From: Escherichia phage vB_EcoM_G17
Sequence record: MK327931.1
Reading direction: 5' to 3' (one strand)
Length of the DNA stretch: 64,000 nucleotides
The notes beneath the pieces are model-generated. The model worked only from the letters and a program-made list of their open reading frames with translations. It was not told the DNA's origin and did not search any database. The position numbers and the translations under genes were made by a program. Of this stretch, positions 224 through 53,523 are shown piece after piece (the stretch's first letter is position 1; every line of letters begins with the position of its first letter).

Positions 224-805
224 TTAGAGAGATTCTTCGTATTCAGCAACAATCTCAACCATTTCATTAATGAACTTGATGTGAGAATGTGTCACTGTAC
301 GGAAGTCGTAAACAAGTGACTGTTGGAAAAATACATCTTCATCAAGAGAACCATCAAAGTTCAAATCAATGTTTTCATCGTCATTGCTTGGTGCAACTTT
401 AATATTCAGAAGATTTTCATCAATGAACTTGATGTGAGAATGTGTCACTGTACGGAAGTCGTAAACAAGTGACTGTTGGAAAAATACATCTTCATCAAGA
501 GAACCATCAAAGTTCAAATCAATGTTTTCATCGTCATTGCTTGGTGCAACTTTAATATTCAGAAGATTTTCATCAACTGCAAGTTTTACAACACAACCCA
601 GTGCAATGGCAAGAACATATGCTGGTTTCTTAGCTTTTTCATTACGGAATGGTGCACGTAGAGCACAAAAAGTACTGCTAATCTCATCATTTGGTTCTTT
701 GTATTTAACATTGACCATTAGTTCTTCGATTTTGACGCTCTCAATAACACGACCAGTTTCTGGAGCGAAGAAAGAATGTTCACGGATAGTTTGTTCGATA
801 TTCAT
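224..805 (-). CDS. hypothetical protein containing an exact 51-aa internal tandem duplication
   Basis: 193-aa ORF; residues DENLLNIKVAPSNDDENIDLNFDGSLDEDVFFQQSLVYDFRTVTHSHIKFI occur twice in tandem. Confidence 0.55.
   Translation of the reverse strand: MNIEQTIREHSFFAPETGRVIESVKIEELMVNVKYKEPNDEISSTFCALRAPFRNEKAKKPAYVLAIALGCVVKLAVDENLLNIKVAPSNDDENIDLNFDGSLDEDVFFQQSLVYDFRTVTHSHIKFIDENLLNIKVAPSNDDENIDLNFDGSLDEDVFFQQSLVYDFRTVTHSHIKFINEMVEIVAEYEESL
262..576. repeat. 153-bp direct tandem duplication (about 2 copies, 1 mismatch)
   Basis: sequence 269-421 is identical to 422-574; period 153 nt, in frame with CDS 224-805. Confidence 0.9.
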
Positions 806-808
806 ATA

Positions 809-1003
809 TTATTCCTTATTTAGATTGCTAAAAATACGAAGATTGCGGTTTGCTTTAAACTGTTTCAAATCACCAAATCTATCATCAACGATGAAAGTTG
901 CTGATTTCTTTGACTGACATATTGTACAAATCAACATACCTTGTATTGTATACTCAGTTGAGCAATTTGTACAGTACTTTTTTTCATAAAGTTCAGTACT
1001 CAT
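809..1003 (-). CDS. small Cys-rich (zinc-ribbon-like) protein
   Basis: 64-aa ORF with CxxC...CxxC spacing. Confidence 0.45.
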   Translation of the reverse strand: MSTELYEKKYCTNCSTEYTIQGMLICTICQSKKSATFIVDDRFGDLKQFKANRNLRIFSNLNKE

Positions 1004-1335
1004 AAAACCTTCACATCAGTACGTTTTTCTCTTTGTTCTTTTTTAACCTCATCAGTTCTAGTATCTTCTAATTGTAACACAACTTCTTTTAGAATGTCAA
1101 CATCAATTGTTGCTTCTACATATTGATAGTCGTTTACACCAAAAACATACTTTACTGCAACCCATACACGGTTATACCATTTTAAAAAAGGATTTAAACG
1201 CATACTTATCAGACATTGACCAAGTTTATCATCTCCATATTCCTCTGTCAAGTCAAATTGTGCAATGTGAACGCAATGCTCCATTTTATCGCCACAAGAA
1301 CAACGTAAAATATACTCTTTACTATCTTCACTCAT
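1000..1335 (-). CDS. hypothetical protein
   Basis: 111-aa ORF, tightly packed with neighbours (start/stop overlap). Confidence 0.5.
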   Translation of the reverse strand: MSEDSKEYILRCSCGDKMEHCVHIAQFDLTEEYGDDKLGQCLISMRLNPFLKWYNRVWVAVKYVFGVNDYQYVEATIDVDILKEVVLQLEDTRTDEVKKEQREKRTDVKVL

Positions 1336-1754
1336 ACTGGATAAGCCTTTAAAAATTGTTTAAGAACTCCAAACTTAGATGAATCGTAATCGTATTGATA
1401 GTTAAGCTCTCGCTTATCATTCATACGATACACCATATGAAAATTTGGATAACCAATTCTAACAGGTTTTTTAGGATTAGCAAGTAAAATTGCCCATTCT
1501 TTTACTGGAAATACGTTTTCAGTCAGCATTTTGATATTTGTTTCAAAATACTTCATGGCTTGCTTTCCGTGTTTGTAATCTTCTTCACTAATCTCTTGAC
1601 AATCAATTCTATGTGTTTCGGTATCTAACACCCATTGTTGATCTTCGGTATATAAATCAATTACATCATCAATAGTATAACTATCAGGTAAATCATAAAA
1701 TACCCAATGAGATAAACCAGAACTTACACCAATTCGAATTTTAAAGAACTTCAT
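1332..1754 (-). CDS. hypothetical protein
   Basis: 140-aa ORF, overlapping-stop packing typical of phage operons. Confidence 0.5.
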   Translation of the reverse strand: MKFFKIRIGVSSGLSHWVFYDLPDSYTIDDVIDLYTEDQQWVLDTETHRIDCQEISEEDYKHGKQAMKYFETNIKMLTENVFPVKEWAILLANPKKPVRIGYPNFHMVYRMNDKRELNYQYDYDSSKFGVLKQFLKAYPV

Positions 1755-1987
1755 TCTTTATCACCTTTTACATAATTATAACACACGACACAGTGAATTA
1801 CAAGAAGAATTATTTCCACAATGTTAAGAGACAATACATGACTCTGCGGTGTGAAAAGTGCCAATAACAACATTATAGCAGGTATTGTGAATATTTTCCA
1901 AGTTTTTTTCATTTTATTCCTTTGTATATGCATATGGTAAAAATAAAACCTCTGCATTAGGAATGCATTGTGCCAATCCTTCAACAA
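1751..1987 (-). CDS. small membrane protein
   Basis: 78-aa ORF with two hydrophobic segments. Confidence 0.4.
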   Translation of the reverse strand: MLKDWHNAFLMQRFYFYHMHIQRNKMKKTWKIFTIPAIMLLLALFTPQSHVLSLNIVEIILLVIHCVVCYNYVKGDKE

Positions 1988-2400
1988 TAGATTTGTTTTA
2001 TTACATTGCCAAACTTAGTAATTTTATGTCTAAATACTTTTTTATCAACGACAATCCAGTACATGTCCATTTTAACAGTACTGTTATCAGATGGTGTTAG
2101 TAAAGTATCGATGTCATATGTATCAAAGATTTGTCGTTCATATAATCTCCTAATAAAATATTCTCGATTCTCTCTTATATACCCAGATACACAGTTAGTT
2201 GTGGCTTGGTTAGTGAATGAAATCTCACTATTGGACACGCCATTTGCATCACACAAAGGACATATTCCCATGTACTTGGGGGTCGGGTAGGTGTCCAATT
2301 TGTATTTTTCATTACACACCATGTACTGCTGTGGCAATACATCTAATATTATTTCATATTCTTCATCAAACACCTTGAAGCATACCCAACATTTACCCAT
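1981..2400 (-). CDS. hypothetical Cys-containing protein
   Basis: 139-aa ORF. Confidence 0.5.
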   Translation of the reverse strand: MGKCWVCFKVFDEEYEIILDVLPQQYMVCNEKYKLDTYPTPKYMGICPLCDANGVSNSEISFTNQATTNCVSGYIRENREYFIRRLYERQIFDTYDIDTLLTPSDNSTVKMDMYWIVVDKKVFRHKITKFGNVIKQIYC

Positions 2401-2883
2401 TATAGTTTTCCTTTAACACCGTTCTTATATATTCGAATGTTTTAACAAACCAATCATGTTCGTCGGATACATCTACAACTTTACCACCATATACATAGTA
2501 ATGGTAAAAAGGTAACTTGCTTTTTCTTAATCTTTCGGCTAACTCTGGATTTTGAATTATCTTAGCACAAATAGCATCTTGAATAATAGAAATACAATCA
2601 TCCGTCATTTCAATTCGATCATGCATATATTGTTAGCGGCTGCTTTTGCTGCTGCACCAGATACTTTTCTAAGGTCATCATGTTTTTGCCCAGTTAAAAA
2701 CCAAAAGTAAAATGTTTCAACTGAAGGGAACCAACCATATGGTTCAAGTGTGAAGCTATGTGAAGAAAAGTTAGATAGATCTCTACCTAACTTAGTTCTA
2801 GCTTTACTATAAATGTTAATGTGTCGGTATCCATCATCAGTAGGGTCAATAAAGTCAAATGACTCTTCTGGAAACTCAAACAT
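2393..2883 (-). pseudogene. NADAR (YbiA-like) domain gene split into two overlapping ORFs by a frameshift
   Basis: ORF 2605-2883 matches the YbiA N-terminal motifs (LSNF...PYGWFPSVETFYFWF; compare E. coli YbiA FSNF...WPTSEHYFQAQKF); ORF 2393-2626 carries the AKIIQNPELAERL block (compare AKFEQHAELRALL); frames differ, stop at 2633-2635. Confidence 0.55.
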
Positions 2884-2885
2884 AA

Positions 2886-3122
2886 TTATTCTTCTTCTCC
2901 TGAAGGAGTTCCACGTAGTTTGTCAAAATCAACCCAAATACCATGCTGATTTTTAAATCTACATTTCTCATAGTACCAGCTATAGTCAGTTTCAACACCT
3001 TGTGATATAGATCTAACACTACAATCATACATATTATATAAATGATCCCTGACAATATACGTATTAATCAGAATAACAAACAATACAATAATACCACAGA
3101 CTTTAGGATGATCCATAATCAA
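2886..3122 (-). CDS. hypothetical protein with N-terminal hydrophobic segment
   Basis: 78-aa ORF. Confidence 0.4.
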   Translation of the reverse strand: MIMDHPKVCGIIVLFVILINTYIVRDHLYNMYDCSVRSISQGVETDYSWYYEKCRFKNQHGIWVDFDKLRGTPSGEEE

Positions 3123-3243
3123 ATCTAGAACGGAACTCGTTTCAGTACTGTCAATTTACTACGACCGATGGCAACAGCTTTCAGTACTGCTAATGATACC
3201 AGTAATGAAATAACAAGAACACTCAAATAAATTAGCATAATTA

Positions 3244-3821
3244 GACTCCTACACCAAAACGTAAAAGGATGTTATTAACAAACACAAAATCAAATGGAGA
3301 CTTTGGTTCAGATACCGAGTACTGAAAAGTTTCAGCGGAGAAACTTTCCCTATTGTGCCATGTTGATGAATCGATTAGTAATTGTTTATCACCAATTGAC
3401 GTTGAATGTAATGGAAAGTGTGCTGATGAATTTATGGAATACGCATTTAGTTTTCCTTGTTCATCTAATGTGATACTAAGATAATATTTTTTCTCAATAT
3501 CAGGAATAAGTTCTTTTGTATACGAATAGATTGAATCAACCCATTCATCATGTACATTTTCTGCACCAATCAGGTGTCCGAATGATAAATTACGTTTAAC
3601 TGGCTTTGATCCTGGTCGAGTTAGAATGAATTGTTTTGTTAAGTAAAAATTATTATGTTTACTTCAATATTAACATTTTTAAAATTCACAACTTTATCAT
3701 ATACATTTCGAAAAACTGTTATATCCCAAGTACTAATTTCATCCATAATACTTATCACCAGTTCTTCTAGTTCTTGGATAAATGGCAAATCATCCTGATG
3801 AAATCTAGTCATGGTTTTCAT
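3244..3821 (-). pseudogene. hypothetical gene apparently interrupted by a frameshift near 3640-3665
   Basis: 60-aa ORF 3639-3821 is followed by a 140-codon open frame (3244-3663) with no ATG/GTG/TTG start; an A5 run lies at the junction. Confidence 0.35.
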
Positions 3822-27269: not shown

Positions 27270-28572
<1,303 letters not shown>

Positions 28573-52470: not shown

Positions 52471-53523
52471 TTACTTACCTTGTTGTTTCAAACGAGCAAC
52501 TAGTGCAGATGCAGATAGTTGTTCTTTTGGTGCTTCAGGAGTGGTTGCTGCTGGGGTAGCGACTGGAGTTACTGGAGCAGCTTGTGGGGCTGGTGTAACT
52601 GGAGCAGTAGGTGCTACTGGTGCAGGTGCTGACTCTTGTTGTACTGGAGCAGGAGTTGGTTTTGATTCAGTAACAGTTCCAGAGTTAGGTTTTGGTACAC
52701 CTGCTGGACGATATGCAAATGCCCAACGTGCTGGATCATATGCTTCACCATTTACTGATGCTTCGAACATTTCTTCAATTGCTTTCAACTCTTCTGGAGT
52801 TGGTTGTTTTGGCATAAAATCATTTAGATTGTATAGGCCATATTTTTCAATTGCTGCTAGTTCTTCTTCGTTTAGTGGACGCTCAGACATGGAGAATTGA
52901 GACATGTCGTAGCTATTATAACCACCACCATTCTTAGTTTTAACAATACCAAAATCACGACCTTGAACGTAGTGAGTTGGAGACTCTTTGATGCCTGGGT
53001 TTAGCAGGATGGATTTAACTTTATCAAAGATATCTTTGTTAGCCAGAATACGACGAATTGGATTTTCTGGTGCAATGTCGTCTTTTACTGCAACGCTATC
53101 AGGAGCAATAAAACATTGCATTAGATAGGTTTTCTTCTTCCAGTAACGACCAGCCATTGCTTTTAGTTCTTCGTTCCCTGTTTCATTCGCACTTTGGAAC
53201 CATTGACGTACTTCTTTCAGAACCGGACAGGATTTAGGAACCCACATTTCGTTACAAGGTACTTGAACGGTAACTTTATCAGTGTGCATACCGACTACAC
53301 CATTGAAAGTTAGGTTAATCATGTCACGTTCACGCCAGAAGAATGGGTTAGACTCATCTGCATCTGGTAGAAAACGTAGGTTTAGTGGTTCGTTATAAGG
53401 TACGTTCCAGAAAGCTAAGAACGAATCAGCTTTACGCTCGCCAGTAAATGTACCATTCTTTTGAGCTTCTGCTTTTTCTTGTTCTGCTTTTAGGTGTGCA
53501 CGAATTTCAGCTAGAGATTTCAT
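52471..53523 (-). CDS. 32: single-stranded DNA-binding protein (gp32-like)
   Basis: N-terminal LRFLPDADESNPFF block resembling T4 gp32 (IRFLPSKNDEQAPF); Pro/Thr/Ala-rich C-terminal linker. Confidence 0.6.
   Translation of the reverse strand: MKSLAEIRAHLKAEQEKAEAQKNGTFTGERKADSFLAFWNVPYNEPLNLRFLPDADESNPFFWRERDMINLTFNGVVGMHTDKVTVQVPCNEMWVPKSCPVLKEVRQWFQSANETGNEELKAMAGRYWKKKTYLMQCFIAPDSVAVKDDIAPENPIRRILANKDIFDKVKSILLNPGIKESPTHYVQGRDFGIVKTKNGGGYNSYDMSQFSMSERPLNEEELAAIEKYGLYNLNDFMPKQPTPEELKAIEEMFEASVNGEAYDPARWAFAYRPAGVPKPNSGTVTESKPTPAPVQQESAPAPVAPTAPVTPAPQAAPVTPVATPAATTPEAPKEQLSASALVARLKQQGK

Follow-up and report, generated by a model that had tools for sequence, protein, structure and literature searches.

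Two overlapping open reading frames (ORFs) on the minus strand of Escherichia phage vB_EcoM_G17 (sequence record MK327931.1) are, on comparison with related phages, the halves of one 163-aa gene interrupted by the loss of a single base. The intact protein has an established NADAR fold that needs both halves, and by its sequence it is a His-type phage NADAR whose nearest characterised relatives are the gp30.3/AdfN proteins of T4. The lost base is one of six of the same kind in a short stretch of the record, and we judge a sequence fault to be likelier than biological inactivation of the gene. The stretch of DNA analysed, referred to as the window, comprises 64,000 nt; all positions are those of the window, and strands are given as + or −.

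The interrupted gene occupies 2393..2883(−) and measures 491 nt, versus 492 nt in relatives. The N-terminal ORF, 2605..2883(−), encodes 92 aa: native residues 1–84 followed by eight out-of-frame residues and a TGA at 2607-2605. It contains the motifs DG..HINIYSK, LSNF and SVE. The C-terminal ORF, 2393..2626(−), encodes 77 aa corresponding to native residues 87–163, and contains an HYYVYGGK motif, W145 and R154. Its ATG, at 2626-2624, is that of a native internal Met. The second frame is offset by −1 from the first and is open from 2632, being closed upstream by a TAA at 2633..2635(−). A frame change restoring the full protein is possible only between 2632 and 2608. An earlier sequence-only reading had proposed that a NADAR-domain gene is split here by a frameshift; its coordinates proved exact, in that both ORFs, their overlap (22 nt) and the TAA at 2635-2633 were re-found.

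Comparison with relatives located the defect. At the same DNA, 23 related phage records carry an uninterrupted 492-nt CDS; the orthologs include gp268 of Escherichia phage Sharanji, AGC35112 of PBECO4 and gp73 of 121Q, each of 163 aa. The region is 99.6–99.8% identical to that of Asteriusvirus jumbo phages (Sharanji, slurp01, PBECO4 and others) and 93–95% identical to that of 121Q, phAPEC6 and SP27. All 21 of the 21 records that fully cover 2200-3200 have 1003 bases there, versus 1001 in the window. According to the alignment, the frameshift is caused by one T missing from the + strand at about 2629 (TT at 2630-2631 versus TTT), which corresponds to one A of the AAA run at Asn84-Lys85 (coding strand AA versus AAA in all relatives). 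Where the relatives have AAC AAA TAT ATG (..AAANKYMHD..), the sequence of the window is AAC AAT ATA TGC ATG. The halves match adjacent parts of the same profile: in phrog_652 (PHROG 652, function unknown) they cover positions 115–193 (E 4.9e-27) and 210–276 (E 5.5e-13), consecutively and without overlap, and the family HMM finds them at 7e-41 and 3.5e-28. The reading of the locus as one gene split by a frameshift therefore held, as did its suggestion to look for intact orthologs in related phages: every related Asteriusvirus record has a single intact ORF.

Programmed −1 ribosomal frameshifting or transcriptional slippage would produce a full-length NADAR from both frames, and the −1 offset of the second frame and the 22-nt overlap are of the kind expected for such recoding. 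However, the interval 2632-2608 contains neither an X XXY YYZ slippery heptamer nor a long A/T run, the two-frame layout occurs in no related genome, all of which have a single ORF, and the five neighbouring frameshifts of the same kind described below cannot all be programmed. Programmed frameshifting was ruled out on the first two of these grounds, and we allow recoding of any sort next to no chance. Hardly more credible is that the two ORFs are translated separately and that the polypeptides reassemble into an active split enzyme. The break point does fall in the loop between helices 76–84 and 95–110 of an AlphaFold model, and the downstream ORF does start at a native Met. However, no Shine-Dalgarno-like sequence was found upstream of ATG 2626, the 27 close homologs and the listed members of 2088 distant cluster representatives are all single-chain proteins, and the activity of T4 AdfN drops on loss of its last 15 residues alone (PMC11825919). 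A promoter and terminator scan returned nothing above shuffle expectation. Taken literally, the sequence makes the split allele null: its N-terminal fragment ends before H128, W145 and R154, no ribosome-binding site serves the C-terminal ORF, and the 15-residue loss is enough to weaken AdfN of T4.

The NADAR identity assigned in the sequence-only reading stood by remote homology, using profile and fold methods, but not by Pfam. Neither the halves nor the intact protein matched PF08719, PF08010 or any other Pfam model at E ≤ 10, and no match was obtained with NCBIfam or with phmmer against the PDB. As far as Pfam is concerned, this is the outcome that the sequence-only reading had named as one that would refute it. 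A homolog search yielded 28 proteins, 27 of which were used in alignments; these are unsplit proteins of 144–263 aa, each covering the query in full. Invariant in the family alignment are D17, H21, N23, Y25, S26, G33, L36-S37-N38-F39, G50, F52, E56, G76, K80, H128-Y129-Y130, W145 and R154. Searched against all PDB sequences (E ≤ 10), the family profile gave two matches only, 8bau (E 1.2e-4) and YbiA, 2b3w (E 5e-4). In a profile–profile comparison using hhalign, the family aligned with E. coli YbiA (probability 90.6%, E 1.3e-6) over residues 20–125, that is, across the break point. An AlphaFold2 model of a 98%-identical protein (P0001) had a pLDDT of 90.9 and a pTM of 0.84, and in Foldseek it matched, with a probability of 1.0, the NADAR structures 2b3w, 8bau and 8bat only. 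The same list of structures has been reported for T4 AdfN (PMC11825919). Sub-threshold matches were found to PF08719 in five of the 27 family members (best E 0.024) and to PF08010 in six of the 27 (best E 0.0042); no other families were matched by as many members.

The clade (PHROG 652) is large and rich in phage proteins: it comprises 2088 cluster representatives at E ≤ 1e-3 and is found in 537 phage records, among them those of Asteriusvirus, RaK2, Erwinia and Serratia jumbo phages, Ackermannviridae and Vibrio phages. Some members are multidomain proteins (P0024, P0035, P0040, P0047, P0054, P0069, P0080 and P0096), with fusions to DUF4326, DUF488-N3a, YAcAr/SLOG, Macro, a calcineurin-like phosphoesterase (metallophosphatase) or a canonical NADAR. 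The last occurs in P0096, a protein of 1415 aa that contains both a canonical NADAR domain and a His-type domain. These fusion architectures are those given for viral NADARs by Iyer et al. (PMC9503650), so specialists have effectively counted the clade already, and databases keep the name 'hypothetical protein'. The 163-aa 'hypothetical protein' of Asteriusvirus, RaK2-like phages, Ackermannviridae and many other phages can be annotated as a His-type NADAR related to T4 AdfN. Elsewhere in the 64-kb window, neither another member of the family nor a canonical NADAR was found.

Within the NADAR superfamily, a late β-strand residue distinguishes the YbiA family, which has Glu, from the DarT1-linked BC4488 family, which has Asp, and from the 'phage NADARs' or gp30.3 proteins, which have His (PMC11543638, PMC11125620). 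We aligned the T4 gp30.3 family and compared it with the family of the interrupted gene by hhalign profile–profile alignment, which gave a probability of 96.9% and an E-value of 1.5e-10 over 138 columns. The comparison pairs E56 with T4 E36, H128 with T4 H123 and R154 with T4 R149. The codon for Glu56 is at 2716..2718(−) and that for His128 at 2501..2503(−). E56 is invariant in all 28 sequences and aligns with the Glu of 8bau, YbiA and T4, the catalytic residue being E36 in T4 AdfN and E43 in PnNADAR (PMC11825919, PMC11543638). H128, likewise invariant, aligns with His123 of the T4 gp30.3/AdfN family (PMC11125620). In a MAFFT alignment to which single T4 and YbiA sequences had been added, the pairing of H128 was ambiguous by at least one residue. 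From the alignments, E56 and H128 are predicted to be close in space. These alignments argue that the interrupted gene encodes a His-type phage NADAR.

The likeness to T4 gp30.3/AdfN (PF08010) extends to overall form, both being stand-alone phage proteins of ∼150–160 aa with a near full-length profile match, and to the catalytic Glu, the diagnostic His and the C-terminal Arg, which are invariant in both families. By contrast, the protein of the interrupted gene gives no PF08010 match, and its family lacks the nearly invariant Lys43 of the T4 proteins, has its own signatures, DG..HINIYSK and HYYVYGGKV, and occurs in jumbo phages, Ackermannviridae and Vibrio phages but not in T-even phages. With canonical NADAR/YbiA proteins (PF08719; 2B3W, 8BAU and 8BAT) it shares the LSNF motif and the catalytic Glu. 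It differs from them in an identity of only 16–17%, in the lack of a PF08719 match, in having a His in place of the last-strand Glu or Asp, in lacking the phosphate-binding Lys, and in a β-hairpin, HYYVYGGKVV, that replaces the D..WG loop.

Homology makes ADP-ribose N-glycosidase activity, with release of ADP-ribose from a base adduct, the most likely function of the intact protein. It would thereby free guanine in phage DNA of ADP-ribose and so counter DarT1-type toxins, or act on a related adduct. Removal of guanine ADP-ribose installed by DarT1 would be its role by analogy with T4 AdfN, AdfN-Bas32 and AdfN-Bas60 (PMC11825919), although an anti-DarT role, as the sequence-only reading had raised, is suggested here by NADARs of other clades. 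Activity of this clade on ADP-ribosyl-guanine is an extrapolation, because a Lys is absent and no Pfam or NCBIfam model is matched at threshold. The Lys in question coordinates phosphate and lies seven residues after the Glu; the residue aligned with it, L63, varies across the family. Its counterparts, K50 of PnNADAR, K95 of E. coli C7 NADAR and K43 of T4, are needed for efficient hydrolysis of ADPr-guanine (PMC11543638).

Without that Lys, and with Macro, SLOG and DUF4326 domains fused to some members, the clade may have another substrate, for example soluble signals derived from ADPr (PMC9503650). A NADAR-fold protein of this kind might bind or process soluble ADP-ribose-derived immune signals rather than on DNA adducts, or might be non-catalytic, which we consider unlikely. 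Such a role would agree with the loss of the Lys required for efficient ADPr-guanine hydrolysis (PMC11543638), with the failure of the Pfam NADAR and Phage_30_3 models to reach threshold, and with the fusion partners, which are those linked to soluble ADPr derivatives by Iyer et al., who proposed that many phage NADARs act on soluble derivatives instead (PMC9503650). On the other hand, neither the catalytic Glu nor the His that defines the clade varies, and every NADAR clade assayed so far hydrolyses ADPr-guanine in vitro (PMC11125620, PMC11825919). An N-glycosidase acting on a base adduct remains our preferred assignment for the intact protein.

Among the orthologs of Sharanji, 121Q and ph0011, dN/dS was 0.019–0.044, indicating strong purifying selection. 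These ratios of 0.02–0.04, together with the full length of every one of the 27 more distant homologs, show clearly that the gene has a function in nature.

The frameshift in the NADAR gene does not stand alone. When the whole 64 kb was compared with Sharanji (OR545507.1), the differences consisted of six single-base gaps and a 153-bp tandem duplication with one substitution inside it; the remaining ∼60 kb are identical. Each of the six gaps is a T lost from a T3–T5 run of the + strand, at 1995, 2014, 2129, 2629, 3154 and 3657. All lie within 1.66 kb, where they disrupt the homologs of gp266 to gp270, five minus-strand genes in a row. The three deletions at ∼1995, 2014 and 2129 are in the gp266 and gp267 homologs; that at 2129 lies inside the 20-nt gp266/gp267 overlap and joins gp267 to out-of-frame gp266, and together they create a fused ORF, 1981..2400, of 139 aa. 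The deletion at 3154 leaves two ORFs, 2886..3122 and 3125..3238, in place of the gp269 homolog, and that at 3657 truncates the gp270 homolog, of which only ORF 3639..3821 is left from the start. The duplication, at 262..567, is in the gp261 homolog; its copies, 262-414 and 415-567, are 99% identical, differing by one C/T at 421. It is in-frame in ORF 224..805(−) and lengthens the gp261 homolog from 142 to 193 aa.

By our own calculation, the chance of six events falling in 1.66 of 64 kb is ∼1e-7. In the same stretch, six of ∼59 T runs were affected, versus none of 44 A runs (≥3 bases), with a p value of about 0.03. The spacing of the last four deletions, at 500, 525 and 503 nt, is oddly regular. 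Relatives diverging by up to 7% have no indels in window 2200-3200, and the duplication is present in none of 21 full-length relatives.

The allele was likewise confined to this record: neither the split product nor the duplication was found in any public record or contig examined, and the exact 92-aa product is absent from the public protein collection. The 364-aa protein of a neighbouring gene has three contigs on record that carry it, from Sharanji and Logan only; among the matches listed for this protein, Sharanji and one Logan contig both have the intact 163-aa gene. E. coli complete genomes and plasmids gave no match from which the split allele could derive. IMG/VR, GTDB genomes and JGI metagenomes do not contain a 33-mer spanning the deletion, but this says little, since IMG/VR, where the intact 33-mer was also looked for, lacks that one too.

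Gradual pseudogene decay was excluded. Beyond the changed patch, not one base of the 64 kb differs, and six independent frameshifts could not accumulate gradually under such conditions. Because the deletion is unique and one of six clustered changes of the same type, it points to a fault or to a single odd local event, and not to selection on the NADAR gene. We favour the former as the most likely cause: a local sequence fault, in the form of a poorly supported or poorly polished stretch or another non-natural alteration. Such a stretch could have been built on low-quality data or on data from one strand, for instance close to a join in the assembly, an origin that the unique tandem duplication beside the cluster would fit. 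Two points count against a fault. Homopolymer errors are usually genome-wide and are not restricted to one 1.7-kb patch with 60 kb perfect, and the shortened runs are short (T3–T5), which is atypical for Illumina data.

It is possible, if doubtful, that the allele is a genuine null, the deletions and the 153-bp duplication having arisen in one localised, strand-coordinated event of error-prone synthesis. The source of such an event, put forward with similar reserve, would be, for example, recombination-dependent or break-induced replication across a repaired break, with fixation by a plaque-purification bottleneck. The changes are confined to ∼3.4 kb, the deletions are one-stranded and a tandem duplication adjoins them, which would fit a single repair tract. 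Moreover, the broken genes are small, accessory and of unknown function, and plausibly dispensable in the laboratory. Against a genuine event, there are no substitutions outside the patch, the sole one, at 421, being in the duplication, and six independent frameshifts would need a special mechanism. None of the changes occurs in any relative, the gene is under strong purifying selection, and the regular spacing of ∼500 nt between the last four deletions looks unnatural. The more specific proposal that the changes are the footprint of one error-prone repair-replication tract of ∼3.4 kb, by which five accessory genes, the NADAR gene among them, were lost at once, is distinctly unlikely. With a sequence fault as the favoured cause, the real phage probably makes the intact protein.

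Disruption of a phage NADAR gene by a one-base indel nevertheless has a precedent, which speaks for a genuine event. In RB69, a 1-nt insertion causes a frameshift that truncates adfN, and this correlates with sensitivity of RB69 to DarTG1 (PMC11825919). Unlike the change described here, the RB69 insertion lies near the 3′ end, removes 15 residues and is alone in its genome; the interrupted gene of the window loses half of its protein through one of six clustered deletions and is matched by no other record. Also in keeping with a genuine event, truncated gp30.3 products are common in public T-even genomes. These truncated gp30.3/AdfN products, of 86–126 aa versus ∼152, include P0179-P0182, P0188, P0191, P0192 and P0267, and in some of them additional Pfam domains come from adjacent genes. 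Disruption or mis-calling of phage NADAR genes may be frequent in public genomes.

If the changes were genuine, the phage would lack the NADAR and four neighbouring accessory proteins, and it might be sensitive to guanine-ADP-ribosylating defences. It would constitute a natural knock-out among jumbo phages, and with Sharanji as a wild type identical in all else, protection by this NADAR clade against DarT1-like guanine ADP-ribosylation could be tested cleanly. A mutational signature of phage recombination-dependent replication would also be testable against the isogenic Sharanji. The sequence-only reading had held that an inactivated copy would be informative. That argument is weakened here, given that the deletion is unique and one of six of the same type in 1.66 kb of a 64-kb stretch otherwise identical to Sharanji. 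The changes in window 262-3657 are suspect for any conclusion on gene content.

In ph0011, the gene upstream of the NADAR ortholog (2148-2498, the homolog of window 2886-3238) is annotated as 'WWE domain-containing protein'. WWE domains bind ADP-ribose, which is suggestive beside a NADAR. An ADP-ribose-related neighbourhood was nevertheless rejected: the Sharanji ortholog of this neighbour has no Pfam WWE match, giving only a weak match to DUF6097 (E 0.011), and nine other neighbours gave no informative Pfam match either.

The remainder of the window, 4440-64000, is 100% identical to Sharanji and comprises a block of genes for replication and nucleotide metabolism, with a terminase-like gene after it. 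By identity with Sharanji, its genes encode TelA-like, DnaX-like, GyrA/GyrB, IF-3-like and RecD-like proteins and RNase H, as well as DHFR, NrdA/NrdB, a DnaB-type helicase, a RecA-like protein and PolB. Short tandem repeats are located at 27714-27755 and 52559-52622, with periods of 18 and 27 nt and 2.3–2.4 copies each.
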